NCBI GenBank assembly: GCA_043808785.1
Contig: JAZDEL010000005.1
Span: 6,483 to 38,482 of the forward strand
Origin: Candidatus Iainarchaeum sp.
Lineage (GTDB): Archaea; Iainarchaeota; Iainarchaeia; Iainarchaeales; JAZDEL01
DNA: 32,000 nt
Direction of reading: 5' to 3'
Both the position numbers and the translations under genes were made by a program. The notes beneath the pieces were generated by a model, which saw only the letters and a program-made list of their open reading frames with translations, did not search any database and had not been told where the DNA came from. This document shows, piece by piece, positions 1 through 26,096 of the stretch (positions are counted from its first letter, which is position 1; each line of letters starts with the position of its first letter).

Positions 1-422
1 GGGATGAAAAATATGCGCAAAGCCTCCTGCGCCTCTGCAGGAACATGGGCGTCGAAGACAGGGTTACTTTCGTCAGGGAGAGCATTTCAAGGGAGCAGCT
101 GAGGAACGCCTATGCTGCGTGCGACCTGTTCGTGCTGCCGAGCATCTATGAATCATACGGCATTGCCCTGCTTGAGGCAATGGCGCAGGGCTGCGCGGTG
201 CTTGCATCACGCACGGAAGGGCCTGCGGGAATAATAAGCGAAGGCGAGAACGGAATGCTCTTCGAGCCGGGCGGAAGCGCGGAACTTGCGCAAAAAATAG
301 GAAGCCTTATAGACGACGGCACTGCCAGGGCAAGGCTCGGCAGAAACGCCAAGGCTTACGCGCAGAACCTGCGCTGGGAAAAAATCGTATGCATGATAGA
401 CGCGGAGTACGGTAAATTATGA
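1..422 (+). CDS. Glycosyltransferase family 4 (GT-B fold), C-terminal part; the 5' end lies upstream of the window
   Basis: The frame is open from nt 3 to TGA 420-422. DLFVLPSIYESYGIALLEAMAQGCAVLASRTEGPAGIISEGENGMLFEPG is the canonical GT4 (Glycos_transf_1) E-x7-E donor-binding region. The stop overlaps the next start (ATGA 419-422). Confidence 0.85.
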   Translation, partial: DEKYAQSLLRLCRNMGVEDRVTFVRESISREQLRNAYAACDLFVLPSIYESYGIALLEAMAQGCAVLASRTEGPAGIISEGENGMLFEPGGSAELAQKIGSLIDDGTARARLGRNAKAYAQNLRWEKIVCMIDAEYGKL

Positions 423-2245
423 AAATCTGCATTGTCTGCGGAGGCTTTCCCCCTGACAAGTACGGCGGGGTAGAGAACAGCCTTGCCGCATTCAGGGAAG
501 CGATGGAGAAAAGGGGGCACGAGATAACCGTTATTGCGCAGGATTTCAGGGGGAAGAAAGGGCAAGGCAAAAACATGCACTGGTTCGATGTCGAGCCGCG
601 GAACCCTTTTCCGCAGATAGGCATGGTGGGCTTTTTTACCGATGCCCTGCAGTTTGCGAGATGGTATTTCGAGGTTTGGAAATTCCTGCGCAGGCGCGAA
701 TTCGACATCTACCACGGCCACCAGATATGGGGCTTTGTAGGCTGCCTTGCAAAAAAAGGGAAATGGGTTCTGACGCCGAGGAATGTTATCGTGCCGAGCG
801 CAAGCTGGCTGAAAAGCCTTTCGCACAAGGCGCACTACTTCATCCTCAGGCGTGCGCTGGACAAGGCAGACAGGGTTGTAGCAATAAGCGGGGTTCTCGA
901 GGAAAACATCGCACAGCACTCCCAAGCAAACAGGGCGAAGATAAGGAGAATATACAACGGCATAGACCTGCGCAAATTCAGGCGGCTGAAATTAAGGCGG
1001 GAAAGGGACGGCAAAAAGAGGCTCCTCTTTGCAGGCAAGCTGAAGCCCGAGAAGGGCGTGCTTGACGTGCTGCGCGCATACAGGCTGCTGAGGGAAAGGG
1101 GAATAGATGCGGAGCTTGTTGTTGCAGGCACCGGGGCGCATCTAGAAAGGCTGAAGAAGGAATATCCGGAAGTGAGCTTCCTCGGCTTTGTGGGGCAGGA
1201 GCGGCTTATAGAGGAATACAACAAGGCCGATGCATATGTAGTTTATGCCCCAAAAACAACCGCTGATGAAAGCTTCTGCAACAGCCTTGCCGAGGCAATG
1301 GCATGCGAGTGCGCGGTTGTCTGTTCCGACATACCGATTTACAGGGAAATAACGAAGGGAAAGGCGTTCTTTGCGGAATCCGAAAGCCCGGAAAGGCTGG
1401 CAGATGCCATCGAGGGCGCTATAAAGCGCAAAGACCTTGCGGAAATCGGCAAAGAAATGAGGAAGGTCGCGGAAAACTACTCGCTCGAGAGGTGCGTAGA
1501 GGCGCACGAGGCAATGTACCGCGAACTGCTTGCCGAGGGCAGGCTGAAGCCGGAAGATTATGGCGAGAACTATTTCCTGAACGAAACCCGCGGCTCCGCC
1601 GAGTTCAGGGAAAGCCGCGGGGAAATGCTCGGGGAGAAGCATGGCAGGGTTCTCTCGCTCCTCGAACCGAAGAGCGGCGAGCGCATCCTCGACATAGGCT
1701 GCGGCAGGGGCGAACTTGCATACCACGCAGCAAAGAGCGGGGCAACGTGCTTCGGGCTTGATTTTTCCCCCGCAGCGCTCCGCCTTGCGCAAGAAAAAAA
1801 CAGGGGGCGGCTTGTGCAGGGGGCTTGCACCGAACTTCCCTTCCGCAAAGGCGCGTTCGATGCCGCTGTGCTGGGTGATATTATAGAGCACATAGACAGG
1901 GAGGATGCGGTGCGCTGCATTGCCGCGGCGCACTTAGCACTGAAGAAGGGCGGCAGGCTCCTTATCCACACAAACAATGTGCGCACCGTGAAGGCTGCGG
2001 AAATTCTGGGGATAATTCAGGGCACAAGGTTCAGGAGGAACGACCCGAAGAAGACAAGGCATATAAACTTCCTTGGCAGGCTTGAGCTTGAGCGCATGCT
2101 TTCCGATGCCGGCTTCCGCTCAATGGCGTGGACCGAAAAAATCGGCAGGAAAAGGTTCAATTTTCCCGCGAGAGATGCCATGCTGGATGCCGCATGCAGG
2201 CTCGGCTTCGGCGCGGACCTCTTCGCCCTGGGGGTCAAAAAATGA
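419..2245 (+). CDS. Bifunctional fusion: GT4 glycosyltransferase (N-terminal ~375 aa) plus class I SAM-dependent methyltransferase (C-terminal ~230 aa)
   Basis: 608 aa. The N-terminus reads MKICIVCGGFPPDKYGGVENS and later ADESFCNSLAEAMACECAVVCSD (GT4). From about nt 1550 there is MT motif I ILDIGCGRGELA plus FDAAVLGDIIEHI and KKGGRLLIHT (Methyltransf_11-like). ATGA overlaps occur at both ends. Confidence 0.85.
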   Translation: MKICIVCGGFPPDKYGGVENSLAAFREAMEKRGHEITVIAQDFRGKKGQGKNMHWFDVEPRNPFPQIGMVGFFTDALQFARWYFEVWKFLRRREFDIYHGHQIWGFVGCLAKKGKWVLTPRNVIVPSASWLKSLSHKAHYFILRRALDKADRVVAISGVLEENIAQHSQANRAKIRRIYNGIDLRKFRRLKLRRERDGKKRLLFAGKLKPEKGVLDVLRAYRLLRERGIDAELVVAGTGAHLERLKKEYPEVSFLGFVGQERLIEEYNKADAYVVYAPKTTADESFCNSLAEAMACECAVVCSDIPIYREITKGKAFFAESESPERLADAIEGAIKRKDLAEIGKEMRKVAENYSLERCVEAHEAMYRELLAEGRLKPEDYGENYFLNETRGSAEFRESRGEMLGEKHGRVLSLLEPKSGERILDIGCGRGELAYHAAKSGATCFGLDFSPAALRLAQEKNRGRLVQGACTELPFRKGAFDAAVLGDIIEHIDREDAVRCIAAAHLALKKGGRLLIHTNNVRTVKAAEILGIIQGTRFRRNDPKKTRHINFLGRLELERMLSDAGFRSMAWTEKIGRKRFNFPARDAMLDAACRLGFGADLFALGVKK

Positions 2246-3387
2246 AAATAGCGTATGTTGTTTCTGGCTATGCCCCGCAATTGGGCGGCGCGGAACTTTA
2301 CACACAGGGGGTTGCGGAGAGGCTTGCGAAACGCGGGCATGATGTTAGCGTAATAACTTCCCGCCCTGCGGGATACGCGCATTTTGAGGAGATTAACGGC
2401 ATAAAGGTTTACAGGCTCCGCGGAACAAGGCTTCTGTTCGGGAAGATGGCGCTTTACCCCGAACTTAGGGCAACCATCGGAAAAATAATGCCTGATGCCT
2501 TGCACTGCATCGGGCACGGGCATCTGTATTCAATCGGCGCCGCAGGCGCGGCATCCAAACTCGGCATCCCGCTTTTCATGCATACATACGGCCCGCTTTC
2601 GGCGCACACGCAGCGCGGAATTCTTGAAAAGGCGCTCTGCGGAATTTACGACTGCATTGTGACCCCGCGGCTTTTCCGGAATGCGAAGGCAGTGCTTTAC
2701 AGGACGCCGGGCAGCGGGGAATGGTGCATTTCAAAGGGCGCGAAGAAGGCACTGCTCGGCACAACCGGAATTGACGAGACATTCTTTGCAAAAACAAAAA
2801 ATAAAAACCGCGGGCGTAGTTCAAAGGTTGTCGGGTTTGTGGGCACGATATGCAGGAGAAAGGGGGTGCAGAGCCTTGTAGATGCGGCACCGGAGGTAAT
2901 AAAGAGGCACATGGGCGCGGAGTTCGTTATTGTAGGCTCGGGCAATGCGGAGACGGACAAAAATTTCGAGGCGGAATTGAGGGAAAGGGTGCGGGAACAT
3001 GGCATAAGCGGGGCGTTCAAATTTATGGAGCCCATAATGCCTGACAGCCCTGAAAACAAAAAGAAAATCGCAAGGCTGTTTGATTCATTCGACGTTTTTG
3101 TGCTTCCCTCCGAATTCGAGGCGCCAGCGCAGGCAATGCTGCAGGCAATGGCGCGCGGCAAGCCTGTTGTGGTTGCCGGCATACCTATGCTGAGGGGGAT
3201 TGTCGGGGACGAGAATGCGCTTTTCATAAATCCGGGGGACAGCGGCATGCTTGCCGAAAAGATAAGCGCGCTTCTTGCGGACAGCGCGCTGAGGAAACGC
3301 ATGGGTGAAGCGAACATAAAGGCTGCAGGAAAGTTCTCGCTGGAACGCATAGCAGCTGAACTTGAGAAGGTTTACGGGGGATTTTGA
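2242..3387 (+). CDS. Glycosyltransferase family 4
   Basis: MKIAYVVSGYAPQLGGAELYTQGVAERLAKRGHDVSVIT and FVLPSEFEAPAQAMLQAMARGKPVVVAG are GT4 signatures. ATG 2242 overlaps the upstream TGA 2243-2245. The tracked start at 2128 lies inside the previous gene. Confidence 0.85.
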   Translation: MKIAYVVSGYAPQLGGAELYTQGVAERLAKRGHDVSVITSRPAGYAHFEEINGIKVYRLRGTRLLFGKMALYPELRATIGKIMPDALHCIGHGHLYSIGAAGAASKLGIPLFMHTYGPLSAHTQRGILEKALCGIYDCIVTPRLFRNAKAVLYRTPGSGEWCISKGAKKALLGTTGIDETFFAKTKNKNRGRSSKVVGFVGTICRRKGVQSLVDAAPEVIKRHMGAEFVIVGSGNAETDKNFEAELRERVREHGISGAFKFMEPIMPDSPENKKKIARLFDSFDVFVLPSEFEAPAQAMLQAMARGKPVVVAGIPMLRGIVGDENALFINPGDSGMLAEKISALLADSALRKRMGEANIKAAGKFSLERIAAELEKVYGGF

Positions 3388-3989
3388 TGGAAGGCATAAA
3401 CCCTTTCAGGTACCTGCAGAACGCGCTTTCCAAAATTACGCGCAAAAGGCGCATTGATTTTTTTTTGTCAAGCATGGAACGCCAAGGGAACGCCACTGTC
3501 CTTGATGTCGGGGCAAGCGCCAACTTCCGGCTTAAATGCGGCGGACAGGGCAGGCTAATCGCCCTTAACACAAGCAGGCATGCGCTTTCAGGGCTGTGCG
3601 AAACGCCGGCGCTCTGTGTTGTCGGGGACGGATGCGCCCTGCCGTTCAAAGACAAATCTGTCGACATGGCATTCTCGAATGCGGTTATTGAGCATGCAGG
3701 CAGCTGGGAAAGGCAAAGGCTTTTTGCGGATGAGATAAGAAGGGTGGGAAAAGGGTATATTGTGTGCACTCCGAACAGGCACTTCCCCTACGAGCCGCAT
3801 TTCCATCTTCCGCTTTTTCAGTTCATGCCCGCTGCCGTGCAGCGCTTCCTTAAGGGGCTTATGGGAAAGGGGCACCTTGAAGTGCGCCTGCTAAGCAGGG
3901 GGGAAATGAAGGGGCTTTTTCCCGATGCCGAGGTTTTCGGCATGACGTTCGACGCGCTACCTGAAGTGCTCATCGCGCACAGGAAATGA
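3387..3989 (+). CDS. Class I SAM-dependent methyltransferase (Methyltransf_11-like)
   Basis: VLDVGAS and VVGDGCALPFKDKSVDMAFSNAVIEHAG are SAM-MT motifs. ATG 3387 shares one nt with the upstream TGA 3385-3387; TTG 3384 is an alternative start. Confidence 0.75.
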   Translation: MEGINPFRYLQNALSKITRKRRIDFFLSSMERQGNATVLDVGASANFRLKCGGQGRLIALNTSRHALSGLCETPALCVVGDGCALPFKDKSVDMAFSNAVIEHAGSWERQRLFADEIRRVGKGYIVCTPNRHFPYEPHFHLPLFQFMPAAVQRFLKGLMGKGHLEVRLLSRGEMKGLFPDAEVFGMTFDALPEVLIAHRK

Positions 3990-3990
3990 A

Positions 3991-4186
3991 CCGCGGGCTT
4001 TGCGGCTTCGGTACCCGCGAATAGGCGCGGAGTTTGCTGTTTTGGTGCGGGGGAATCCGCGCGGTTTTTGCGGTTGCGACCCCTGTGAACCCGCGCGGAT
4101 TTTGCGGTTTCAACCCGCAAATCCGCGCAGGAACCAAGCAAATATGCGCGGGGGTTTTTTGTTTTCAGTCCCGCGAATCCGCGCAG
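3991..4186. repeat. Cluster of six copies (3 forward, 3 inverted) of a ~16-17 nt GC-rich motif CCGCGCGGnTTTTGCGG; REP-like palindromic repeats between convergent operons
   Basis: Forward copies: 3991-4005 ccgcgggctttgcgg, 4057-4073 ccgcgcggtttttgcgg, 4091-4107 ccgcgcggattttgcgg (the last two match 16/17). Inverted copies: 4015-4030 ccgcgaataggcgcgg, 4115-4130 ccgcaaatccgcgcag, 4171-4186 ccgcgaatccgcgcag (the last two match 15/16). Copies 4093-4107 and 4115-4128 form a 14-bp hairpin with a 1-nt bulge and a 7-nt loop. A T-rich run lies at 4155-4165. Confidence 0.7.
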
Positions 4187-5163
4187 GTTTCGCATATCGA
4201 GAGTTTCCGCATGCGCATCATCTCTCTTGCGCGACCGTATTCCTTGCTGCCCCATATGTCCCTGAAAGGAACCTCGAGCGCGTTCCCGAACCTGTACTTC
4301 GAATGGAAATCGTAGCAGCAGGGCGTGACCGTGCCGTCGACAAGCACAACGCCCTTCCTTATGAACGAGCAGCCCTTGTCCGAGGTGTTGGCGGCATAAT
4401 CTTTCGGCAGGAATTTTTCCTTCATGTCGGCAATTTCCCGAGGAGTGTAGCCCCATGAAGGTATTGCAAAGGATTTTATCGTGGCGGTCGCATCCAAGGA
4501 TGCGGCAAACTTTTTGAACTCATGCACCTCGTGCCTGTTAAGCTTTGTTTCAATCATCTGCAGCACAAGCTTCGGCTTTGCGCTGCGTGCAGCGCGCTTC
4601 TCCTCGGCAAATGCCGCGAGGTTTTGCATAACCTCCTCGAAATTCCCGCCCCTGCGCATTTTTTCGTAATTTTCCTTTGTGATGCTGTCAAGCGAAACTA
4701 TGAGCCTGTCAAGTTTCGCATTTATGAGCCTGCGGGATGTTTCACGGGTAAGCAGGGTTGCGTTCGTGTTTACAATCGAGTTAAGGTTTTTTGAGGATGC
4801 GTATCCGACCATCTCGGGCAGTTCGGGATTGAGCAGCGGCTCCCCCGCGAAAAACAGCCACAGGTAATGCACGGAACAAGGCAGGCCGTCCACGACCTTC
4901 CTGAACTCGGCAAGTTTCATAAGGCTTCTTTTGCGCTTAAGGCTTGCGTGCGGCGTAGTGCAGAACTCGCAGCGCAGGTTGCACGAGTTCACAGGCTCTA
5001 TACTCATGGCATGCGGCATGCCGGCAAGCCACGAGGGCGCTGCAAAAGCCATATGCGCGGTTTTGCCGAACTCGGCGCAGAGGAAATCACGCCAAGATTC
5101 CGCAGCCAGCCTTTTTGCAAAGCCAAATGCCCTGAGTGCATTCGCTTTTATGCCGCCGCTCAT
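4165..5163 (-). CDS. Radical SAM enzyme with SPASM/twitch-like C-terminal Cys-rich domain
   Basis: SIEPVNSCNLRCEFCTT contains CxxxCxxC. The C-terminus has CSFIRKGVVLVDGTVTPCC (C-x11-G-x4-C) and CETC. Start ATG 5163 overlaps the stop of the upstream GT (ATGA on the minus strand). Confidence 0.85.
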   Translation of the reverse strand: MSGGIKANALRAFGFAKRLAAESWRDFLCAEFGKTAHMAFAAPSWLAGMPHAMSIEPVNSCNLRCEFCTTPHASLKRKRSLMKLAEFRKVVDGLPCSVHYLWLFFAGEPLLNPELPEMVGYASSKNLNSIVNTNATLLTRETSRRLINAKLDRLIVSLDSITKENYEKMRRGGNFEEVMQNLAAFAEEKRAARSAKPKLVLQMIETKLNRHEVHEFKKFAASLDATATIKSFAIPSWGYTPREIADMKEKFLPKDYAANTSDKGCSFIRKGVVLVDGTVTPCCYDFHSKYRFGNALEVPFRDIWGSKEYGRAREMMRMRKLSICETCADSRD

Positions 5164-6266
5164 TCCACAGCCTCCCTGTAAATCGCGCCGAGCTTTTTGT
5201 TTACCGCGACTGTGCCGAACATTTCGTCAAAGCGCTTCCTGCCTGCCATGCCCATTTTTTTGCGCAGGCTACGCGACTCGATGAGCTGCAGCAGCGCGCC
5301 CTCCAATGCATCCGCGCTGCCCGGCCCAACAAGCACGCCAGTCTTCCCGTCCTCGACAATTTCGGGTATTGCGTTTATGCCTGTTGCAACAACTGGCAGG
5401 GAAAATGCCATTGCCTCCTGAAGGACGATGCCGTGTGCGTCTATAGGCGAGGGGAAGCAGAATATGTCAGCCTCGCGGTAGAAGCGCGGAATTTCCGCAT
5501 ACTGCATGAAGCCGTATTTCTTCACGCCCTCGATGCCGTTTGGCACCTCATCGCCGCTGCCCACAACAACAAGCTCCAGTTCCGGAAACCTTTTTTTCAG
5601 CCTCCCGAAAGCCTCGAGCAGCACATTCCCGCCCTTGCGCGCAAACTGCGTCGAGACAAAGAGGATGCGAAGGGCTTCGGCTTCGGCGGCGGCAGAATCC
5701 CGCCTGCGGGAAACCGTTTCTGGAATGTCGAGCCCCGGGGGAATTACCTCTATTTTCCCGTGGCCGATGCCCGGCACGCGCTCCTCCAGCGTGCGCACTG
5801 CATAATTTGAAAACGGAATCAGTTTTTTGCAGTTTTTTGAATTAATAACCTTCCGCAAAATGAAGCCTGCCCTCTGCCTGAGTTCCGGGCGGTTGCGGAA
5901 GTAATAGAATGTGTTTGCCGTGTCAAACGCAAAAACCCAGGGCTTGTTTGCGTGCAGCGGCGTAACCATTGAATGCACCAGCGAGATGCCGCTTTCATGC
6001 GGAAGGGAGAGGCGCCTCACAATGGGCAGGTTTGTCTTCAGCGCTGCCGAAACTGTTTTTGCAAGCGGAATTTTGTAGAGTGCGCCCGTGTATGAAAAGA
6101 CACTTGCAGGAACAAGGCGCCCGCTGTGGTCCGCGTTTATGAACTCGCGGTGCCCCGCCGTGTAGCTGCCGTAGAAATAGTTCACTCCGTCCGGCGGGCT
6201 GCCGAGAAGGTTCCTGAGATAGGTTGCCCCGCCCTGGCCCGGATAGCCGTAGAAAAAGACATTCAT
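5160..6266 (-). CDS. Glycosyltransferase family 4
   Basis: FCFPSPIDAHGIVLQEAMAFSLPVVATGINAIPEIVEDGKTGVLV is the GT4 E-x7-E region. ATGA overlaps occur with both neighbours (6263-6266 and 5160-5163). Confidence 0.85.
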   Translation of the reverse strand: MNVFFYGYPGQGGATYLRNLLGSPPDGVNYFYGSYTAGHREFINADHSGRLVPASVFSYTGALYKIPLAKTVSAALKTNLPIVRRLSLPHESGISLVHSMVTPLHANKPWVFAFDTANTFYYFRNRPELRQRAGFILRKVINSKNCKKLIPFSNYAVRTLEERVPGIGHGKIEVIPPGLDIPETVSRRRDSAAAEAEALRILFVSTQFARKGGNVLLEAFGRLKKRFPELELVVVGSGDEVPNGIEGVKKYGFMQYAEIPRFYREADIFCFPSPIDAHGIVLQEAMAFSLPVVATGINAIPEIVEDGKTGVLVGPGSADALEGALLQLIESRSLRKKMGMAGRKRFDEMFGTVAVNKKLGAIYREAVE

Positions 6267-7123: not shown

Positions 7124-7185
7124 AGTCAGGTTAGGGGCAAAACAACTAATAAATATTGCTGTCACAGATATATCTGCGTGTTGCG
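7124..7185. promoter_or_regulatory. 62-bp divergent intergenic region with shared AT-rich TATA-like elements
   Basis: taataaatatt (7148-7158) lies about 25-35 nt from both ATG 7123 (minus strand) and ATG 7186 (plus strand). A second AT box, agatatatc, lies at 7166-7174. Confidence 0.4.
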
Positions 7186-8924: not shown

Positions 8925-9805
8925 TGGCCGATAAATTAAAAAACATAAAAGAAAAAATCAGGAAAGAACTGGCGAAAAATCCTGCTTATCTGGACGGCTG
9001 TGATGTGCCGGCATTAAAAGCGGTATTGTTCGAAACCGGCTCCGCCTGCAACAGGAAATGCGCCTGGTGCCCCAATTACACTACTGACAGAGGGAACCAT
9101 TTTTTGGGCGATAAAGTTTTTTATAAAGTAATGGCCGAGCTTAAGGAAATGAAATTTGAAGGGAGGGTTTCATTCAGCATGTACAATGAACCCCTGCTTG
9201 ACAAAAGGCTCCCGAAATTTATTGAACACGTGAGAAAAAACATCCCTTCGGCATATATATACCTGAACACCAACGGGGACGCACTGACCTCGGATGTCTG
9301 GAAAAGCCTTCGGGGGAAGGGGCTGGACTATGCCAACGTCTCCCAATATGACGGAAAAATAAATGAAAACATTGAAAAAATCCTGAATGGATTGGATTCG
9401 GGTGAAAGAAAGCATCTCGGCGCACATATTTTTGATTTGAACACCATTAACAACAGGGCGGGATTGATTAAATCAAGGGCGCTTGAGAAGCCTTTGCAGG
9501 AGAAGTGTTCCCGGCCTTCTTACCAATTGTGCATTAATTACAAAGGCGAAGTTGTTGTTTGCTGCAATGATTACCACGGTTCGGTTACGGTAGGCGACGC
9601 GGGCAAAGAATCAATAAAAGATTTGTGGAGTAATTATGTGTTTAAGTTCTACAGGAAGAAGTTATCGGAAGGGGACAGGGCGAGTTTGGAATTATGCAAT
9701 TTGTGCGATTTGTGCTCAAGCCCTGTGCCTCCAATTTATCCTAAGCCCTCATTTGCCGCGCGGGCGCGGCGGGCGCTGCGGCAAATTATAAACAATTATA
9801 AATAA
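8924..9805 (+). CDS. Radical SAM enzyme with SPASM/twitch-like C-terminal domain (markedly lower GC than its neighbours)
   Basis: FETGSACNRKCAWCPN contains CxxxCxxC. The C-terminus has CSRPSYQLCINYKGEVVVCC (C-x12-G-x4-C) and CNLCDLC. ATG 8924 shares 1 nt with the MT1 TGA 8922-8924. Confidence 0.8.
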   Translation: MADKLKNIKEKIRKELAKNPAYLDGCDVPALKAVLFETGSACNRKCAWCPNYTTDRGNHFLGDKVFYKVMAELKEMKFEGRVSFSMYNEPLLDKRLPKFIEHVRKNIPSAYIYLNTNGDALTSDVWKSLRGKGLDYANVSQYDGKINENIEKILNGLDSGERKHLGAHIFDLNTINNRAGLIKSRALEKPLQEKCSRPSYQLCINYKGEVVVCCNDYHGSVTVGDAGKESIKDLWSNYVFKFYRKKLSEGDRASLELCNLCDLCSSPVPPIYPKPSFAARARRALRQIINNYK

Positions 9806-9888
9806 TTGCAGCCAATTTTATTATTGCATTTAAAGCGCGGTTAAAGAAAGTTTTTGAGGAAGCTGTCGGATGATTGCGGGGTAATCGG

Positions 9889-11673
9889 ATGATTATACTT
9901 GGGTTCACGAACGGCCACGACTGCGGAGCCTCGATTGTGAGGGACGGGAGGGTTGTTGCGGCCGTAAACGAGGAAAGGCTTAACCGCGTGAAGGTGTATT
10001 GGGGCTTCCCGTGGCTCTCAATCAGGGAGGTTATGCGCGTTGCGGGGGTTAAACCTGGGGAGATTGACGCTGCCGCATATGGCGGCCTTGCCGACGCCTG
10101 CAACATCTGGCAAGTCAAGAACCAGTCGGAGGGCCTGCAGTACCCCTCGCTGTTCGGGATGAACTGCGGAGCCGTGAATTTAATCGAAAAAAGGGCATAC
10201 AGGCCGCTGCTGAGGAGGGGCATAATCAAACGTGGGAGCGCCGATGTCGCGCTCAAATATTTCCGGAAGGCGTTGCGCAGGATTGGGATTGCCGCTCCGC
10301 TTGCAATGGTCGAGCACCATGCCGCGCATGCTGCCTCGGCATATTACAGCTCGGGGCGCGAGAATGCCACGACAATTACAATTGACGGAATCGGCGACTT
10401 GCAGTGCGCAACTGTATCAAAATGCAAAGGCACGGAAATCGAGAGGATTGCATCAACGCATTACCATGGGGCATCACCTGGTGCCTTCTATGCGAATGTT
10501 ACAAATCTCCTCGGCTTCAGGCCCCTGAGGCATGAGGGCAAAGTGACAGGGCTTGCCGCCTACGGGAATCCGGAGGCAATTGAGTTCCCGTTTTTGGGCC
10601 TCGCAAACGGAGGAATGGAATTCAAGTGGGAGAATTACGAGGGCTATTTCCCGAGGCCGTTTGACAGCCTGTCGAATTTCCTTCTGTACATCAGGGGCGG
10701 CCTCGGCATTGGCGCAACAAGCAGGGCATATCTTGATGCAATGAGGGAAAGGGCCAAAGGGGCCAAGAGGGAGGATGTTGCGGCCGCCGCACAAAAGAAA
10801 TTCGAGGAGGTTATTTGCAGGCATGTGGAGAAGGTTCTCGAGGCAACCGGAAACGGGAACCTCTGCCTTGCGGGAGGGGTGTTTGCGAATGTGAAGCTCA
10901 ATCAGCGCATCCATGAAATCGACGGCGTTAGCAGCATTATGGTGCACCAGCATATGGGTGACGGCGGGCTGGCTGTCGGGGCGGCGCTGCACTATTACAG
11001 GGAGAAGCAAGGGGGAAAATGCGTAAAGCTGCCGCATGCTTACCTGGGCCCCGAGTATGGCGGGGGAGAGATAGAGCGCGAGCTTACGGCAGCGGGGCTT
11101 GAGTATGAGGAGCACGGGGATATTGACGGAAAGGTTGGGGAGGTGCTGGCCGAGGGCGACATAGTCGCGAGGTATGGCGGCAGGATGGAGTACGGGCCCC
11201 GTGCGCTCGGAAACAGGAGCATTTTGTGCCAGCCCACCGACCCCTCCGTAAACGATTGGCTGAATAAAAAGCTGAAACGCACGGAGTTCATGCCTTTTGC
11301 GCCAGTAACGCTTGGCCGTTATGCGAAGAAGTGCTACAAAGGCATGAAGGGGGCGGAGCAGCCTGCCGAGAACATGATTATTACCTTTGGCTGCACCGAC
11401 TGGCTTGCTGAGAACTGCCCTGCTGTCGTGCATGTTGACGGAACGGCACGCCCCCAGGTCATCGAGAGGGGCGTGAACCCCGGGTATTACAGGGTGCTGG
11501 AGCAATACCACAAGATTACGGGCCTGACTACGCTCATTAATACCTCATTCAACATCCACGAAGAGCCCATAGTATGCACGCCGGGGGATGCCGTGAGGGC
11601 GTTTAAGCTCGGGCATCTGGAGTACCTGGCTATCGGGGATTTTTTGGTTCGGAACAAAAGCGATAAAAACTGA
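9889..11673 (+). CDS. Carbamoyltransferase (NodU/CmcH/TobZ family)
   Basis: MIILGFTNGHDCGASIVRDGRVVAAVNEERLNRVK, HHAAHAASAYYSS and MGDGGLAVGAA give an ASKHA/Kae1-like N-domain typical of NodU-type O-carbamoyltransferases. TTG 9874 is an alternative start. Confidence 0.85.
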   Translation: MIILGFTNGHDCGASIVRDGRVVAAVNEERLNRVKVYWGFPWLSIREVMRVAGVKPGEIDAAAYGGLADACNIWQVKNQSEGLQYPSLFGMNCGAVNLIEKRAYRPLLRRGIIKRGSADVALKYFRKALRRIGIAAPLAMVEHHAAHAASAYYSSGRENATTITIDGIGDLQCATVSKCKGTEIERIASTHYHGASPGAFYANVTNLLGFRPLRHEGKVTGLAAYGNPEAIEFPFLGLANGGMEFKWENYEGYFPRPFDSLSNFLLYIRGGLGIGATSRAYLDAMRERAKGAKREDVAAAAQKKFEEVICRHVEKVLEATGNGNLCLAGGVFANVKLNQRIHEIDGVSSIMVHQHMGDGGLAVGAALHYYREKQGGKCVKLPHAYLGPEYGGGEIERELTAAGLEYEEHGDIDGKVGEVLAEGDIVARYGGRMEYGPRALGNRSILCQPTDPSVNDWLNKKLKRTEFMPFAPVTLGRYAKKCYKGMKGAEQPAENMIITFGCTDWLAENCPAVVHVDGTARPQVIERGVNPGYYRVLEQYHKITGLTTLINTSFNIHEEPIVCTPGDAVRAFKLGHLEYLAIGDFLVRNKSDKN

Positions 11674-11704
11674 TGCATGGCTTTTTTGCACAGGGGGCAC
11701 AGGA

Positions 11705-12481
11705 ATGGCCGGTGAAAGCAATGAAATGCTGACTGTGGATTACAACGGAATTACTGTCTACTACAAAAAGCATCTTGACGGAGGTGGCAGTACGTTCGGG
11801 CAGGATTACATTCCCGAGGTCGGGAAGCGCTTCGGGAAGGTGGGGAGGGTGCATGAATTCTGCTGCGGGCCTGCATTCATTGGATTTTCATTGCTTGCGC
11901 ACGGGCTGTGCGATTCATTGTGCCTTTCGGACATAAACCCGAAGGCGATAGAGATGTGCAGGCTCACTGTAAAAGAAAACCGCCTGGAAGGGGTTGTTGA
12001 TTGCTACGTTTCCGACTGCTTAAAGGGAATCCCGGAAACAGAGAAGTGGGATTTGGTTGTAAGCAACCCTCCGCACTTCGACGGCACTGAAGAGGATTAT
12101 GCGCGTGAAATCCGCAGCTATGACCCGAAATGGAGGATACACAAGGAATTCTATGAAAATATCGGCGGCTTCCTAAACGAGGGAGCATCAGTTTATTTCT
12201 ATGAAAACGGCCGGCAGTCAAACCCGGAAATATTCAAGGAAATGGCTGGGAAAGCGGGGCTTGAATTTGCCGGAATCCGCAGGCCGGGCAAGCTGGAGGT
12301 GATCCCCAGATGTCTTGCATGGAGGCTGCCCCGAGTGCTGCACAAATTCCCGAACATCAGAAAAATGGCCGGCATTGTCATTAGAAGTGCGAACTACCCT
12401 TTCTATTTTATCCACAGCAGGAAACCTGCTGCCGGGAGCGCAAGCAACCCTTCCCATTTTGCCCGCGGCAGGAAGTATTGA
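11705..12481 (+). CDS. SAM-dependent methyltransferase with an NPPH motif (amino-group N-methyltransferase type)
   Basis: EFCCGPAFIGFSLL is motif I. DLVVSNPPHF is a (D/N)PP(Y/F/H) motif IV, characteristic of MTs that methylate exocyclic or amide nitrogen. Confidence 0.7.
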   Translation: MAGESNEMLTVDYNGITVYYKKHLDGGGSTFGQDYIPEVGKRFGKVGRVHEFCCGPAFIGFSLLAHGLCDSLCLSDINPKAIEMCRLTVKENRLEGVVDCYVSDCLKGIPETEKWDLVVSNPPHFDGTEEDYAREIRSYDPKWRIHKEFYENIGGFLNEGASVYFYENGRQSNPEIFKEMAGKAGLEFAGIRRPGKLEVIPRCLAWRLPRVLHKFPNIRKMAGIVIRSANYPFYFIHSRKPAAGSASNPSHFARGRKY

Positions 12482-12522
12482 TGCTTAGCATGTGCCGCAC
12501 CGGGCATGAATGCGCGCATATC

Positions 12523-12567
12523 CCGCGCTACGGTGATTCGCTTATCGTGAGGGCAAGGAAGGTTTAG
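12523..12567 (+). pseudogene. Orphan 45-nt copy of the 3' end of the MT1/MT2 methyltransferase genes (PRYGDSLIVRARKV-stop), embedded in a 28-codon ORF at 12481-12567
   Basis: ccgcgctacggtgattcgcttatcgtgagggcaaggaaggtttag differs at 2 of 45 nt from the MT2 3' end (13293-13337). There is no upstream MT homology. ATG 12481 overlaps the preceding TGA by 1 nt. Confidence 0.65.
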
Positions 12568-12617
12568 CCCCGCGGCAACCCTTAAAAACAGGTCTGGGCA
12601 AATTCTATCGGTCGGAC

Positions 12618-13337
12618 ATGGGCAAAAAAAACTGCGAAAGCCAAAAGCCGTACTGGCTGGATGCGCACTTTGCATTCAACAGAGAGGGGCATACAAGAAT
12701 CCCCCCTTACTCAAAATCCGGCATGCACGACGTGCTTCTCTACAGTAGGCTTATAGACCTGCTGCCACAAGACGGTATTTCAAAGGCGTTCGAGATAGGC
12801 TACGGGAATAACCCTATTATAAGCTTCCTGCCAAGTGGCGTAGAAAAGTTTGGAATAGATATGGCTGACATAAAGCCAGATGGCATTAATGTCATAAGGC
12901 ACAATGTAGAGGACGGCCTGCCGTTCCAGAAAGGCTGCTTCGAGCTTGTGGTTGCCTGCGAAACCATAGAACACATATATGAAACAGGCAACTTCCTGCG
13001 GGAATGCAACCGCGTGCTGCGAAAGGGCGGCACGCTGGTTTTGTCTACGCCCAACATTGCTTCGCTGCGCAATATAGCAAGATGCATACGTGGCAGGCAG
13101 CTGAAATTCATGGGATATGATGTGAGAAGCGCAGATGGGCACATAAGGTGCTACACCCGCGGCTCGCTCTTCAGGCAGCTCGATGAATGCGGGTTTTCAG
13201 TAGAAAAGTTCACAAGCACCAAAATGTACCTGCCTTTGCACTTCCATATAAAGCCCATAGGCTGGCTTGGCACTAAACTCGCGCCCCTTCTTCCGCGCTA
13301 CGGGGATTCGCTTATCGTGAGGGCGAGGAAGGTTTAG
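12618..13337 (+). CDS. Class I SAM-dependent methyltransferase, paralogue 2 (MT2)
   Basis: FEIGYGNNP and ELVVACETIEHIYETGNFLRECNRVLRKGGTLVLSTPN are SAM-MT motifs. It is collinear with MT1 (8148-8924) through to PRYGDSLIVRARKV-stop. Confidence 0.8.
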   Translation: MGKKNCESQKPYWLDAHFAFNREGHTRIPPYSKSGMHDVLLYSRLIDLLPQDGISKAFEIGYGNNPIISFLPSGVEKFGIDMADIKPDGINVIRHNVEDGLPFQKGCFELVVACETIEHIYETGNFLRECNRVLRKGGTLVLSTPNIASLRNIARCIRGRQLKFMGYDVRSADGHIRCYTRGSLFRQLDECGFSVEKFTSTKMYLPLHFHIKPIGWLGTKLAPLLPRYGDSLIVRARKV

Positions 13338-13352
13338 TGCCGCTTTGGCGCC

Positions 13353-14378
13353 TTACTTCAGGGCACCGCAGCAATAAACCGTTCTGCACGGCCCGCCTAT
13401 TTTTCCGAACTCCCGCCTTTCAAGCATGCCTATCAGCCGTTTCCTCTTCTCTGATGAATATATCCGATCAATTGACCGCTCCCAAATATTGCCGAGAGCA
13501 AGCTCGTTGTTCGAATCGAGACAGCAGGCATACCATGTTCCATCCGGAGCTATGAATGCAACCGAATGCATCTTCTCGAGGCGCGGACACGAGTAACCGC
13601 ACAGGTCCGCGCTAAGGTGTGCCGCCGCATCCCTCTCAGCCCACCCGAAGACAGCACTCCTAAGAACCATATCGCGCGGGGCAAGCAGCCTGTTCAGGGG
13701 AAGCGCAAAAACCCGTGCCTTTTCTGCAGTTTGCCTGCTTATGCCCAAACGCTTCGCAAGGAGAAGGCAGTGCATCTTCATTTTTATTTCTGCAAAATCG
13801 TCGGGCACCTCAGCAAGGCGTGCGTCGCGCATCTTTGCAGGGTAAAACCCGAAAGCGCCGTGAATTGAATGTATGTAATCGTGCAAAGTCACCACATGTA
13901 TGCGCAGCGGCACCGCACTTTTCAGTTCGCGCCTCAGCCCGAGAAAAGCCTCGAGGTTGCGCATCGTGTTTTCAAGCGGAATGCGCTTTACATTGAAGTA
14001 GTTTTCCGCATTTGCGCCGTCAATGTTGCAGTGCACCTTGTCTATAAGCCCTTCCTCAAGGATTGTGCGCGACTTTTCTTCGGTCAGGTTCTGGAAATTC
14101 GTGAAAACGCCTGTTTCAATCCACGGGCATTCCGCCTTTATGTGCCTCGCTATTTCGATGAAGCGCGGGTTCAGAAAGGCGTCGCCGTTCTCGCCGAGCT
14201 GCATATGCGTCACGCTGTGCCGAGCGCGGAATTCCGGGGAGGAAAGCTCGGAGGTTATTTTTTTCGCAAGGCCGAGGGGCATAATCTTTTCCTTTATCTT
14301 CGCGCCCCGGTCCCTTGCGCAAAAAATGCAGTCTGCTCCGCATGCTAAGGAAAGCGAAAGGTTTACCGCAGTGAGCAT
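13353..14378 (-). CDS. Radical SAM enzyme with SPASM/twitch-like C-terminal domain
   Basis: LSLACGADCIFCARD contains CxxxCxxC. The C-terminus has CPRLEKMHSVAFIAPDGTWYACC (C-x15-G-x4-C) and CRTVYCC. I take ATG 14378; the tracked start at 14387 is a TTG. Confidence 0.8.
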   Translation of the reverse strand: MLTAVNLSLSLACGADCIFCARDRGAKIKEKIMPLGLAKKITSELSSPEFRARHSVTHMQLGENGDAFLNPRFIEIARHIKAECPWIETGVFTNFQNLTEEKSRTILEEGLIDKVHCNIDGANAENYFNVKRIPLENTMRNLEAFLGLRRELKSAVPLRIHVVTLHDYIHSIHGAFGFYPAKMRDARLAEVPDDFAEIKMKMHCLLLAKRLGISRQTAEKARVFALPLNRLLAPRDMVLRSAVFGWAERDAAAHLSADLCGYSCPRLEKMHSVAFIAPDGTWYACCLDSNNELALGNIWERSIDRIYSSEKRKRLIGMLERREFGKIGGPCRTVYCCGALK

Positions 14379-14540
14379 GTTTACCAATTCAAATTTGGGG
14401 CGGATGTGTTAAAAAACAAGCGCTAGGGTTAGTGCGAAAGTTTGTGCACGCCGCACCCCCTGCAATTTGCGCGAAAATAACGCCCGCGTGCGCGCCTGTT
14501 CCCGCGCGTTCATGCCTGTCCATGCCCGTCCAGATGCATC

Positions 14541-14612
14541 TATATAAACCGTTCATCCGCAATAGGTATAATTCCATTCAAATCAAATAAACAAAAGGAA
14601 AAACGAGGTGAT
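14541..14612 (+). promoter_or_regulatory. TATA-like box plus strong Shine-Dalgarno for the 14619 gene
   Basis: tatataaa lies at 14541-14548. GAGGTGAT at 14605-14612 is 6 nt upstream of ATG 14619. It is complementary to the 16S 3' end consensus. Confidence 0.5.
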
Positions 14613-14618
14613 TTTTGG

Positions 14619-15746: not shown

Positions 15747-15880
15747 ATTGAACATGCAGGCATGGGGAAAGGGGGCATGCGCCCCCTTGCGGCCTTCCTT
15801 TCCCCCGCACTTAGCCCTTAGTAACCCTTAAAAAAACAAATGCGTGAATACTATACATTAGTGCGTGCAGGGTTGTTGAC

Positions 15881-16519: not shown

Positions 16520-16581
16520 CTGAATCAATAAGGCTGCCCAATCTGCGGGCGGGCGGTTTCTCAAAAGGGCAGGAAAACCTG

Positions 16582-26046: not shown

Positions 26047-26096
26047 GGCGGCAAGGGCAGAAACAGCGAGGGCAATGCTAAAAAGGGGTCGGGAAG

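Follow-up and report, generated by a model that had tools for sequence, protein, structure and literature searches.

Three twitch-type radical SAM enzymes embedded in a sugar assembly and tailoring island of a "Candidatus Diapherotrites" archaeon

Among the described systems closest to the locus analysed here are the archaeal agl clusters, such as the aglB-linked cluster of Haloferax volcanii with its AglP methyltransferase, or the cluster of Sulfolobus with the GT4 enzyme Agl16. Soluble GT4/GT2 enzymes, a nucleotide-sugar epimerase and SAM methyltransferases there give a tailored oligosaccharide on dolichol phosphate, and the clusters vary strongly between related strains. A 2024 review makes no mention of radical SAM enzymes, carbamoyltransferases or deacetylases (PMC11407970). 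The 2-deoxystreptamine aminoglycoside pathways (butirosin BtrM/BtrD/BtrN, tobramycin TobZ) and sugar radical SAM enzymes of the DesII, BlsE, SpeY and HygY type offer another model; BtrN acts at a sugar carbinol carbon and carries a Cys4-ligated auxiliary cluster (PMC10337720). A further model is the rhizobial Nod-factor set NodB/NodS/NodU.

The DNA belongs to a "Candidatus Diapherotrites" (DPANN) archaeal MAG. Proteins of the window (the whole 32-kb stretch analysed), the carbamoyltransferase included, are 100% identical to NCBI proteins from a Ca. Diapherotrites MAG, and dph5, Trm5b and KaiC genes in the window also back an archaeal origin. Housekeeping genes (NUDIX, acylphosphatase, dph5, Trm5b, adenylate kinase, AdoHcy hydrolase, KaiC) fill 14.4–32 kb. 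Directly downstream of the island lie genes for two proteins that are secreted or anchored and carry N-X-S/T sequons; both are conserved in the relative L001. The island itself spans about 14 kb, with a GC content of 54%, and comprises 14 genes:

1–422, plus strand: GT4_a, C-terminal 139 aa of a GT4 glycosyltransferase (Pfam Glycos_transf_1, 99.7 bits, 3–422)
419–2245, plus strand: GT4-methyltransferase fusion, 608 aa (Glyco_transf_4, Glycos_transf_1 and Methyltransf_25/11/23)
2242–3387, plus strand: GT4_c glycosyltransferase, 381 aa (Pfam GT4 N- and C-terminal domains)
3384–3989, plus strand: MT_d, small class-I SAM methyltransferase, 201 aa (Methyltransf_11, 33.4 bits, cut-off 21.2)
4165–5163, minus strand: rSAM1, radical SAM enzyme with twitch-type C-terminal domain, 332 aa (Pfam Radical_SAM and SPASM)
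5160–6266, minus strand: GT4_e glycosyltransferase, 368 aa (Glycos_transf_1, 112 bits)
6263–7123, minus strand: CE4 (NodB-homology) polysaccharide deacetylase (Polysacc_deac_1, 58.9 bits, cut-off 23.1)
7186–8148, plus strand: extended-SDR, nucleotide-sugar 4-epimerase-like enzyme (Epimerase, 206 bits)
8148–8924, plus strand: MT_f, class-I SAM methyltransferase (Pfam Methyltransf_23/11)
8924–9805, plus strand: rSAM2, BtrN-like twitch radical SAM enzyme, 293 aa (Radical_SAM and SPASM; PDB BtrN 4m7t)
9889–11673, plus strand: NodU/TobZ/NovN-family O-carbamoyltransferase, 594 aa (Carbam_trans_N, 131 bits; Carbam_trans_C, 187 bits)
11705–12481, plus strand: MTS/HemK-type methyltransferase with NPPH motif (PF05175 MTS, 46 bits)
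12618–13337, plus strand: MT_g, class-I SAM methyltransferase (Pfam Methyltransf_23/11)
13353–14378, minus strand: rSAM3, divergent twitch-type radical SAM enzyme, 341 aa counted from the ATG at 14378 (Radical_SAM, 35.5 bits; SPASM, 33.5 bits)

An earlier note on this DNA had read these genes as a sugar-tailoring island, and Pfam found each domain that it had assigned in the place where it had put it. The genes form operons with overlapping starts and stops. In the three transcription units with more than one gene, adjacent genes share 4 or 1 nt at their junctions, which supports the translational coupling that the note had proposed; the fourth unit is rSAM3 by itself. GT4_c overlaps its neighbours by 4 nt, and GT4_e is coupled to both rSAM1 and the CE4 gene.

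The count of only four glycosyl transfers proved too low, because the window begins inside the first GT4 gene and a further GT4 lies upstream in L001. GT4_a, the start of which is upstream of the window, is 88% identical to a 377-aa GT4 of L001 (L001 875–2008), and that gene is preceded by another GT4 (L001 1–878). The island thus extends upstream of nt 1 and, with the upstream gene of the relative counted, has at least five glycosyltransferases; the ratio of tailoring steps to glycosyl transfers is therefore less extreme than had been claimed. The five class-I SAM methyltransferase domains include one fused to a GT4 and one with an NPPH motif. In the fusion protein the GT4 occupies aa 1–372 (419–~1540) and the methyltransferase aa ~407–570 (~1640–2130). 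The two halves are separate, overlapping genes in L001 (67% and 62% identity), and the sequence that joins them in the fusion is a linker that has diverged, as opposed to a 1-nt indel.

The remaining sugar enzymes are members of ordinary families. GT4_c is 62% identical to its L001 counterpart and 51% to a fragment on the Micrarchaeota contig L014; GT4_e is 83% identical to L001 and, over its full length, 38% to the L014 neighbour of the rSAM1 orthologue. MT_d has 58% identity to L001. The CE4 translation (71% identical to L001) keeps intact FFDD and H-G-M-T-H metal/catalytic motifs. The SDR enzyme carries GxxGxxG, SSSSIYG and YxxxK but no TDE dehydratase dyad; its PDB relatives are the UDP-GlcA/UDP-GlcNAc 4-epimerases BcUGAepi, MoeE5, WbgU and WbpP, and it scores 196 bits against the GalE model TIGR01179, under the cut-off of 262. 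MT_f and MT_g are paralogues (59% identical); MT_g is convergent with rSAM3 and weakly matches the sugar O-methyltransferase RebM, 3bus, in the PDB. That the carbamoyltransferase is of NodU/TobZ type was confirmed by its PDB matches NovN (1e-68), GdmN and TobZ (7e-59). The MTS-type enzyme has PDB 9l4q, of unknown function, as a match (E 3e-50) and is 84% identical to an L001 gene that is likewise placed after the carbamoyltransferase; from the NPPH motif, which is typical of N-methyltransferases, it is predicted to be one, as the note had proposed. Since no island enzyme reached an NCBIfam equivalog cut-off, all substrate assignments are inferred.

What is unusual, and uncharacterised, is the embedding of three radical SAM enzymes among these genes. 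All three show the cysteine pattern of the single-auxiliary-cluster "twitch" architecture of BtrN, in agreement with the earlier reading; a conserved pair of adjacent cysteines takes the place of the Cys-Phe of BtrN. In rSAM1 the CX3CX2C motif (C61/65/68) and C265, C282, C283, C324 and C327 are invariant across 50 homologues; its best PDB sequence matches are the sugar-acting enzymes DesII, BtrN and BlsE, and its AF2 model (pLDDT 85.6) has the SPASM/twitch fold. rSAM2 is a true BtrN homologue (4m7t, E 2e-31, full length), and all seven cluster cysteines (those of the radical SAM cluster and four of the auxiliary cluster) are invariant in its family. The cysteine pattern of rSAM3 aligns with BtrN. 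Its family, with 87 representatives at E<=1e-30 among 1.84 billion, is small and contains natural GT4-rSAM and methyltransferase-rSAM fusion proteins.

Synteny with L001 covers 12 of the 14 island genes, rSAM1 and rSAM3 (73% identity) among them. Order and content are largely kept, with rearrangements, and the clustering is therefore not due to chance; together with the domain content, this synteny bears out the assignment as a sugar assembly and tailoring island. The exceptions are rSAM2, which is missing, and the MT_f/MT_g pair: at the MT_f position only an N-terminal remnant is left, and the L001 copies sit on the opposite side of rSAM3. Island genes are 54–88% identical to L001, in contrast to 82–90% for flanking genes, and the island shows indel and duplication remnants. 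rSAM2 is a variable accessory gene; its GC content of 44.3%, compared with 54% for the island, and its absence from L001 indicate that it was probably acquired recently. The three radical SAM enzymes claimed for the island are thus all present, with two syntenic in L001, but rSAM2 is not a fixed part of it. The locus is plastic, rSAM2 and one methyltransferase copy forming an accessory module, as is expected of a surface structure under diversifying selection.

Parts of the island recur elsewhere in DPANN archaea. The core genes for SDR, rSAM1, GT4_e and GT4_c are found again on L014, and three other DPANN contigs have rSAM1 orthologues adjoining GT4, SDR and PF00953 genes. On the DPANN contig L016 an rSAM1 homologue is flanked on one side by a GT4 and on the other by a PF00953 polyprenol-phosphate HexNAc-1-P transferase; a GT2 gene lies upstream. 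A Nanoarchaeota contig (L012) has a carbamoyltransferase homologue in one locus with STT3/AglB, PF00953 and GT2 genes.

We consider it probable that the island serves, in the cytoplasm, to assemble and tailor a surface oligosaccharide, built on polyprenol (dolichol) phosphate and destined to become an N-glycan or glycolipid. The SDR epimerase would supply a UDP-Gal(NAc)/GalA-type donor, and the GT4 enzymes would lengthen the carrier-linked chain. The CE4 enzyme may strip the N-acetyl group off a HexNAc residue. The NPPH methyltransferase would act on nitrogen, either that of the freed amine or that of a carbamate, the latter being suggested because its gene directly follows that of the carbamoyltransferase. 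O-methylation, or C-methylation beside a keto group, may fall to the Methyltransf_11/23 enzymes, and the carbamoyltransferase would O-carbamoylate a hydroxyl, with carbamoyl-AMP as the intermediate. The twitch radical SAM enzymes are predicted to abstract a hydrogen atom at a sugar carbinol carbon, leading to a ketone, as with BtrN, or to inversion; for inversion, the hydrogen could come from a conserved Cys beside an auxiliary-cluster ligand. If this is true, sugar diversity would be gained after glycosyl transfer, and not at the nucleotide-sugar level, in an anaerobic, genome-reduced cell.

Some findings count against a surface glycan. As the note had already observed, the 32-kb window holds no flippase, oligosaccharyltransferase, priming transferase or polymerase. 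The structure search with rSAM1 did not separate sugar-acting from peptide-acting SPASM/twitch enzymes, its more distant bacterial relatives (~33% identity) have non-glycan neighbourhoods, and some rSAM2 homologues are isolated genes.

It is unlikely, but worth serious consideration, that the product is not a protein-linked N-glycan but a polysaccharide, secreted or capsular, or else a glycolipid of the membrane, with Wzx/Wzy-, ABC- or synthase-type export encoded elsewhere. AglB is absent from the window, mixtures of GT4, CE4 and methyltransferase genes are common in exopolysaccharide loci, the best (though weak) NCBIfam matches are EpsE, PEP-CTERM stp2, HfsH and VpsD, and in the metagenomic locus L013 this mix is accompanied by LPG_synthase_TM proteins and a PMT_2 GT-C enzyme. 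However, neither the window nor L001 has a polymerase, chain-length regulator or ABC exporter, and homologous genes are tied to STT3 and PF00953 in L012 and L016. The downstream sequon proteins, conserved in L001, also speak against it, only suggestively.

The earlier note was also reminded of aminoglycoside-type tailoring, and a diffusible aminoglycoside-like or pseudo-oligosaccharide natural product, made by BtrM-, BtrN- and TobZ-like, deacetylase and N-methyltransferase steps on a cyclitol or free sugar, would account for the full-length homology of rSAM2 to BtrN, the TobZ, NovN and GdmN matches, the matches of rSAM1 to the natural-product enzymes DesII, BlsE and SpeY, and the 9l4q match, a sequence that we take, by impression only, to be actinomycete-like in appearance. 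The resemblance is one of families only; the window and 20 kb of L001 contain neither a 2-DOI synthase nor an aminotransferase, and no gene for resistance or export. Of the island genes, only the BtrN-like one is both dispensable and low in GC, and the DPANN relatives of rSAM1 and the carbamoyltransferase adjoin PF00953 and STT3 genes. Paromamine deacetylases of aminoglycoside pathways are of LmbE/PIG-L type, a family other than the CE4 of the island. With no secondary-metabolite scaffold genes visible and DPANN genomes being small, such a product seems quite improbable.

Peptide maturation is the best-known role of SPASM-domain radical SAM enzymes, and the three of the island might mature a ribosomal peptide (RiPP/glycopeptide) that the glycosyltransferases decorate. 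The fold matches of rSAM1 include SuiB, anSME, SkfB and EpeE, one distant rSAM3 relative has a PqqD peptide-recognition domain, and the GT4s weakly match TIGR04157, a glycosyltransferase family neighbouring radical SAM genes (48–57 bits, cut-off 400). But Pfam detects no PqqD/RRE domain in the three enzymes, the intergenic gaps hold no plausible precursor ORF, and protease and exporter are absent; the four or five conserved C-terminal cysteines indicate a twitch domain, unlike the two-cluster SPASM of most peptide maturases. Together with the BtrN homology of rSAM2 and the GT4 and methyltransferase fusions in the rSAM3 family, this makes peptide maturation very improbable.

The radical SAM genes might also have a housekeeping role in cofactor or metalloenzyme maturation, unrelated to sugars, and lie among the sugar genes by chance. 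Top NCBIfam matches to a tungsten-cofactor oxidoreductase maturase and NirJ/AhbC-type models (all far below cut-offs) and distant bacterial relatives in unrelated contexts might point that way, but this reading is scarcely credible and largely refuted by the conserved synteny of rSAM1 and rSAM3, the 4-nt overlap of rSAM1 with GT4_e in one operon, the recurrence of rSAM1 orthologues beside GT4, SDR and PF00953 genes, the fused relatives of rSAM3 and the overlap of rSAM2 with MT_f inside an operon.

Taken together, the observations of the earlier note were confirmed and its interpretation is in part supported. The locus had not been recognised as a characterised one, and we likewise found no curated equivalog model or paper that describes it, and thus no characterised counterpart. 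With the Nod-factor system the island shares predicted de-N-acetylation, N-methylation and O-carbamoylation of a HexNAc-containing oligosaccharide, and membership in the CE4 and carbamoyltransferase families is shown. It lacks NodC (the GT2 chitin-oligosaccharide synthase) and NodA, scores only 21 against a cut-off of 240 for NodB and 134 against 1000 for NodU, and its N-methyltransferase is MTS/HemK-type, not NodS-type. With the aminoglycoside pathways it shares GT4, a deacetylase, a BtrN-homologous twitch enzyme with all cluster cysteines, a TobZ/NovN-type carbamoyltransferase, an N-methyltransferase and the same likely chemistry at sugar carbinol carbons (PMC10337720); it differs in having no visible 2-DOI synthase, aminotransferase, resistance or export genes, in its CE4 deacetylase, its DPANN host and the accessory, inserted nature of its BtrN-like gene. 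The enzyme mix, claimed to be unusual, recurs in part in the unrelated L013 (JGI 3300007070, contig Ga0073929_1000067), an uncharacterised metagenomic glycan locus. There a carbamoyltransferase gene (47% identical to that of the island) directly follows an SDR gene, with GT4s, Methyltransf_11/23 methyltransferases and a CE4 deacetylase in one co-directional cluster. In contrast to the island, L013 carries GT2s, PMT_2, LPG_synthase_TM and YdjC proteins and no radical SAM genes. Compared with agl clusters, the island window is without AglB, priming enzyme and flippase, Agl equivalog cut-offs are unmet, and its twitch radical SAM enzymes, NodU-type carbamoyltransferase and CE4 deacetylase occur in no described agl pathway (PMC11407970). 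In contrast, its GT4s, epimerase and methyltransferases, its strong variation between relatives, the weak match of GT4_c to the Agl16 model (54 bits) and the STT3/AglB and PF00953 neighbours of the DPANN homologues of its carbamoyltransferase and rSAM1 are all features that link it to the agl clusters.

ORF listing and Pfam scans placed all domains named in the earlier note at essentially the coordinates it had proposed, and the island (nt 1-14387) can be laid out as follows.

Genes of the island, with coordinates, strand and product
up to 422, plus strand: GT4_a, a glycosyltransferase, C-terminal part (run 1)
419-2245, plus strand: GT4-methyltransferase fusion protein of 608 aa (run 1)
2242-3387, plus strand: GT4_c, a glycosyltransferase (run 1)
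3384-3989, plus strand: MT_d, a small methyltransferase (run 1)
7123-6263, minus strand: CE4 deacetylase (minus-strand run, first gene)
6266-5160, minus strand: GT4_e, a glycosyltransferase (minus-strand run, second gene)
5163-4165, minus strand: rSAM1, a radical SAM/SPASM protein (minus-strand run, third gene)
7186-8148, plus strand: extended-SDR epimerase (run 2, first gene)
8148-8924, plus strand: MT_f, a methyltransferase (run 2)
8924-9805, plus strand: rSAM2, a radical SAM protein (run 2)
9889-11673, plus strand: carbamoyltransferase (run 2)
11705-12481, plus strand: MTS/HemK-type methyltransferase (run 2)
12618-13337, plus strand: MT_g, a methyltransferase (run 2, last gene)
14378-13353, minus strand: rSAM3, a radical SAM protein (stands alone)

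Junctions within the runs are gene overlaps of 4 or 1 nt, so the operons are indeed translationally coupled, as had been claimed. Housekeeping genes make up the other 17.6 kb of the window, with diphthine synthase, Trm5b and archaeal KaiC as archaeal markers, and neither tRNA nor Rfam features were found at the island borders. A "Candidatus Diapherotrites" MAG in NCBI has proteins 100% identical to the carbamoyltransferase, to rSAM1 and to rSAM2, which places the window in a DPANN archaeon. None of the island's proteins reached an NCBIfam equivalog cut-off.

Several further features were recorded along the window. The convergent intergenic region between MT_d and rSAM1 (3992-4193) holds 3 to 5 copies of a repeat of about 34 nt with the palindromic core (G)AATCCGCGCGG...TTTTGCGGTT; near-matches to the core number 13 in the whole window, 7 of them in this region. 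It could serve as an array of terminators or regulators, or represent a small repeat element. At the same site, the contig of a relative carrying a syntenic island (L001) has a gap of just 99 bp. Directly downstream of the island, 14619-15746 encodes a 375-aa signal-peptide protein, Ala/Glu-rich and with four N-X-S/T sequons, and 15881-16519 encodes a 212-aa protein with a signal peptide, a C-terminal membrane anchor and two sequons. Neither has a Pfam match; L001 keeps both, at 52% and 88% identity respectively, and they are possible candidates for glycan acceptors. Among the housekeeping genes, a plus-strand run at 25333-28915 comprises the genes for adenylate kinase, an uncharacterised protein of 175 aa, a PfkB-family kinase and S-adenosylhomocysteine hydrolase. 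This resembles a set for the SAM cycle and adenosine salvage, and the island, in which eight domains use SAM, is about 11 kb away. The same part of the window also has a matrixin-like (Peptidase_M10) protein and a toxin-antitoxin pair of the MazE-like/PIN (VapBC) type (20104-20871 and 23864-24516).

To characterise the three radical SAM proteins, they were aligned with BtrN. It can be seen that, first, the CX3CX2C motif is present in all three. Secondly, each has Cys at all four positions that bind the auxiliary cluster of BtrN. Thirdly, the full 7-Cys SPASM set occurs in none of them, the C-terminal pattern being the BtrN-like C...C...CxxC. Therefore rSAM1-3 are of the twitch type, as had been guessed from the sequence. 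The likeness is closest for rSAM2, in which C58, C62 and C65 of the 309-aa ORF align with CNRTCWYC of BtrN and four C-terminal Cys align with the four of BtrN, all of them invariant in 40 family members. In a phmmer comparison with BtrN (PDB 4m7t), residues 50-281 of rSAM2 matched residues 28-259 of the chain (E 2.1e-31), which is full-length homology. The auxiliary cluster of BtrN is ligated by four Cys (PMC10337720), and rSAM2 is likewise predicted to bind a single auxiliary [4Fe-4S] cluster through a four-Cys twitch domain. The rSAM1 family keeps C61/65/68 and C265/282/283/324/327 invariant over 50 homologues, and rSAM1 matches the twitch region of BtrN at E 8.6e-9. The match of rSAM3 to BtrN is weak (E 0.007), its twitch assignment resting mainly on the Cys pattern.

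All three proteins have a Cys-Cys doublet where BtrN has Cys-Phe. The second residue of the doublet does not vary in the rSAM1 family, and conservation in the rSAM2 family is at least 90%. Sugar epimerases use Cys as a hydrogen donor. In the sugar epimerase NeoN this is Cys249 (PMC10991966); because of this precedent, the extra conserved Cys of rSAM1-3 could mean epimerase chemistry.

By sequence, the best matches of rSAM1 among solved structures are the sugar-acting enzymes DesII, BtrN and BlsE. A structural model of rSAM1 (pLDDT 85.6) retrieved SuiB, anSME, DesII, BtrN, BlsE, SkfB, EpeE and SpeY with Foldseek at TM 0.5-0.6, that is, the whole SPASM/twitch group including peptide-acting members, and therefore the fold is not decisive for the substrate. 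A single-sequence AlphaFold model of rSAM3 (pLDDT 33) was discarded. The rSAM3 family is rare: a threshold of E<=1e-30 gave 87 representatives out of 1.84 billion. In one of its members the radical SAM part is fused to a GT4 and in another to a methyltransferase, and PqqD occurs as a domain in a more distant relative. The partner domains of the fusion proteins P0408 and P0416 are only distant relatives of the island's methyltransferase and GT4 domains, so the fusion evidence for rSAM3 holds at the family level only. Another protein of this family, P0442 (664 aa), contains an intein with a LAGLIDADG domain.

The other tailoring enzymes were also assigned to families. The carbamoyltransferase has Kae1-like Carbam_trans_N (131.1 bits, cut-off 24) and YrdC-like Carbam_trans_C (186.6 bits, cut-off 27) domains and matched the structures of TobZ, NovN and GdmN at E 1e-57 to 1e-68 over residues of about 135-590; for NodU proper (equivalog NF041651) it scored 133.8 bits, below the cut-off of 1000. 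The CE4 protein, of the NodB-homology group, reached 58.9 bits for Polysacc_deac_1 (cut-off 23.1), its translation showing the Asp-Asp (FFDD) and His-x3-His (HGMTH) motifs, and fell far below all cut-offs of the NodB, PdaB and HfsH equivalogs. In the SDR protein the translation contains GGAGFIG (GxxGxxG), SSSSIYG and YAVTK (YxxxK), and the Asp-Glu dyad of dehydratases is absent. It scored 206.6 bits for the Pfam Epimerase family, and UDP-GlcA and UDP-GlcNAc 4-epimerases are among its nearest solved relatives; the score for the GalE equivalog (TIGR01179) was 196.2 bits, below the cut-off of 262.3.

An NPPH motif is present in the MTS methyltransferase. Enzymes of this family (RsmC/PrmC) methylate exocyclic amines and the glutamine amide. 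A match to a solved structure is strong (PDB 9l4q, E 3e-50) and concerns an entry without described function, on which a literature search found no paper. The gene follows that of the carbamoyltransferase by 31 nt, in the window and in L001 alike. MT_f and MT_g are paralogues, 59% identical, and each adjoins a twitch radical SAM gene (rSAM2 and rSAM3 respectively); rSAM3-methyltransferase pairs are likewise present in L001.

L001, a Logan contig, has the island and the flanking genes as in the window, and the degree of conservation was compared gene by gene. Identity is 82-90% in the flanks and 54-88% within the island. Better kept (79-88%) are GT4_a, GT4_e, the carbamoyltransferase (79%) and the MTS methyltransferase (84%), whereas rSAM1, MT_d, GT4_c and the SDR gene are far more diverged (56-63%). 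Where the window has the GT4-methyltransferase fusion, L001 has two separate genes that overlap. A frameshift artefact as the source of the fusion was rejected: the junction in the window is a diverged linker. rSAM2 is missing from L001, and MT_f at that site is cut down to an N-terminal remnant. Of MT_g, a remnant of 17 codons is left at the place that the gene has in the window, and on the other side of rSAM3 there are two methyltransferase copies and a remnant of the rSAM3 N-terminus. With a GC content of 44.3% (GC3 52%) against 54% (GC3 about 65%) for the island, and absent from L001, rSAM2 looks by its composition like a recent acquisition. One more GT4 gene lies upstream of the GT4_a homologue in L001; therefore the island runs past nt 1 and comprises at least five GT4s, rather than the four glycosyl transfers counted before. 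Such a patchwork, with some genes kept, others replaced, and with duplications and remnants, is typical of surface-glycan loci.

The neighbourhoods of homologous genes were then considered. The rSAM1 clade is DPANN-restricted at 43% identity or more. Besides the relative in the syntenic island of L001 (57% identity), one in Micrarchaeota (L014, 45%) is accompanied by an SDR gene (52%) and by orthologues of GT4_e (38%) and GT4_c (51%). Another (L016, 43%) has a PF00953 polyprenol-phosphate HexNAc-1-phosphate transferase gene directly upstream, a GT4 gene on the other side and a GT2 gene upstream. For the carbamoyltransferase, a relative in Nanoarchaeota (L012, 43%) lies 8.6 kb from STT3, in one locus with STT3/AglB, PF00953, GT2s, B12-radical SAM genes and a second carbamoyltransferase. 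A further relative (L013, 47%) directly follows an SDR gene in a cluster of GT4s, Methyltransf_11/23, CE4 and a PMT_2 GT-C gene. These contexts show that the island's less common enzymes are tied to carrier-linked glycan assembly, and in DPANN to N-glycosylation machinery. Of the enzyme mix which the earlier note called unusual, the non-radical part recurs elsewhere, as in L013; the three twitch radical SAM enzymes are what is unusual.

Some of these loci deserve mention on their own account. Together with STT3/AglB and PF00953, the L012 locus (1-21758) has a pair of NodU-type carbamoyltransferases and, in addition, three radical SAM genes of the B12-binding kind, and carbamoylation with radical chemistry may be common in DPANN glycan loci. 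One carbamoyltransferase homologue, P0013 (912 aa), contains an intein with a LAGLIDADG domain.

Bacterial rSAM1 relatives of about 33% identity (L009, L011) have unrelated neighbourhoods, and those of Chitinophagaceae were dropped as a functional lead, their neighbours being non-glycan genes. In L009 and L010, both from Chitinophagaceae, the gene of this large bacterial family (about 342 aa) immediately follows one for an SLT lytic transglycosylase, and L009 also has a GH25 muramidase gene close by; this branch might have a cell-wall-related role.

Relatives of rSAM2 at 50-64% identity (L002-L006) are found in scattered contexts. The closest (61-64% identity, and besides them one fragment of 81%) are on unrelated metagenomic contigs. 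In Planktothrix a relative adjoins a GT2 gene, in Chlorobaculum it is an isolated gene, and in metagenomic DNA it belongs to a cluster with many genes for NTP-transferases, aminotransferases, sulfotransferases and more radical SAM enzymes. In contigs L005/L006 (about 23 kb), a dense co-directional cluster at 1-16747 contains the rSAM2 homologue P0125, three other radical SAM genes (one B12-binding), an NTP-transferase, aminotransferases, a methyltransferase, a sulfotransferase, a GT8 and many ORFs without a Pfam match. P0125 occurs on at least 24 contigs, and the cluster looks like another uncharacterised sugar-tailoring cassette.

Wider scans added little. A genome-contig scan with the GT4-methyltransferase fusion returned two unrelated bacterial GT4 loci and nothing else. 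A metagenome scan with the rSAM1-clade alignment returned 80 loci at 25-33% identity, the shared patterns being generic radical SAM motifs; a partner match was found in 1 of the 80 (L079), a weak GT4 at E 6e-8.

The island is probably a surface-glycoconjugate locus; that its product is specifically an AglB-dependent N-glycan is held with lower confidence. Domain scans of the window found no flippase, oligosaccharyltransferase or priming transferase, in agreement with the earlier note; a carrier-priming enzyme (AglH-type PF00953 or GT2 Dol-P glycosyltransferase) is absent from the window, and AglB/STT3 was found neither in its 32 kb nor in the 20.6 kb of L001. With the transfer or export genes not visible, a polysaccharide or glycolipid product is a real alternative. 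A RiPP system, with the radical SAM/SPASM proteins as maturases, is disfavoured by the twitch architecture, by the lack of a PqqD domain in all three proteins and by the gaps between genes, which hold only compositionally implausible small ORFs and no precursor-like ORF. The earlier note also raised a resemblance to aminoglycoside tailoring. However, domains of a 2-DOI synthase (DHQ-synthase-like) and of an L-Gln:2-DOI aminotransferase (DegT/aminotransferase) are absent from all ORFs of the window and all called genes of L001, which together show about 34 kb, so that rSAM2 lacks in both the 2-DOS context that goes with 2-deoxy-scyllo-inosamine, the substrate of BtrN; homologues of rSAM2 occur in varied non-aminoglycoside contexts, the gene itself is dispensable, and genes related to those of the island adjoin STT3 and PF00953. 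Therefore, it seems unlikely that the product is aminoglycoside-like. Chance adjacency of the radical SAM genes to sugar genes is refuted by the conserved synteny. An anti-phage defence system was excluded at the level of PADLOC models, which gave no full-length match: the only matches were of the radical SAM core to pVip (residues 59-212) and of methyltransferase domains to mad2, and GT4-conflict matches were outscored by generic Pfam GT4 models.

What has been observed directly for a surface glycoconjugate is the domain content, the cysteine architecture, the operon structure, the synteny and the context. From these we infer, in the scheme that follows, which substrates are used, in what order the steps occur and what the final acceptor is. 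The island would act as an assembly line on a lipid carrier, where the GT4s would lengthen an oligosaccharide using UDP-sugars, one of them provided by the 4-epimerase. The chain would then be edited: CE4 would take off an N-acetyl group, the NPPH methyltransferase would methylate nitrogen, on the freed amine or on a carbamate, and the carbamoyltransferase would place a carbamoyl group on a hydroxyl. The Methyltransf_11/23 enzymes would methylate oxygen, or carbon beside a keto group, and oxidation or inversion at carbinol centres would fall to the twitch radical SAM enzymes. The GT4-methyltransferase fusion here and the GT4-rSAM and methyltransferase-rSAM fusions in the rSAM3 family suggest that the enzymes tailor the chain as it grows, and not the nucleotide sugars.

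Nucleotide-sugar pathways are for the most part missing from genome-reduced, anaerobic DPANN cells. A bolder and still doubtful proposal is that rSAM1-3 edit sugars after transfer, oxidising or epimerising carbinols of a carrier- or protein-linked oligosaccharide, while the paired Methyltransf_11/23 enzymes might methylate the activated position, and that rare sugars are made in this way, with nucleotide-sugar pathways bypassed. If this is true, surface-glycan biosynthesis would gain its first radical SAM enzymes in the rSAM1 clade and the rSAM3 family, and no carbamoylated glycan would have been assigned to an archaeon before this product. Post-transfer editing would then explain how very small anaerobic genomes achieve glycan diversity. 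If sugars are not edited after transfer, the island is one more variable surface-glycan locus. The scheme predicts mass signatures of +14 (methyl), +43 (carbamoyl) and -42 (de-N-acetylation); a radical SAM step should leave either a shift of -2 or an epimer.

The cell surface is where DPANN archaea, which live attached to host cells, meet the partner on which they depend. Literature searches found no glycan structure or pathway for DPANN. Searches for radical SAM enzymes in archaeal N-glycosylation and for carbamoylated archaeal glycans found none, which is weak evidence with incomplete coverage. The island offers worthwhile enzymes to study and a first way into the surface chemistry of DPANN, and does not overturn expectations; rSAM1-3 are compact, uncharacterised candidates for new carbohydrate radical chemistry, from families with natural GT4 and methyltransferase fusions.

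No description of the island's gene set was found in the literature, again weak evidence given incomplete coverage, so the view that it matches no characterised locus still stands. Its tailoring steps resemble those of NodB/NodS/NodU and its radical chemistry that of BtrN/DesII/HygY-type sugar enzymes. However, the window lacks AglB, the scores for the Nod and GalE equivalogs fall short, and the core genes of 2-DOS aminoglycoside clusters are absent; therefore the island cannot be assigned to an agl, Nod or aminoglycoside system. Taken together, it operates in the manner of an archaeal agl or a bacterial surface-glycan cluster: its class, the variable surface-glycan island, is ordinary, and the unusual part is that a DPANN archaeon carries three twitch radical SAM enzymes, all uncharacterised.
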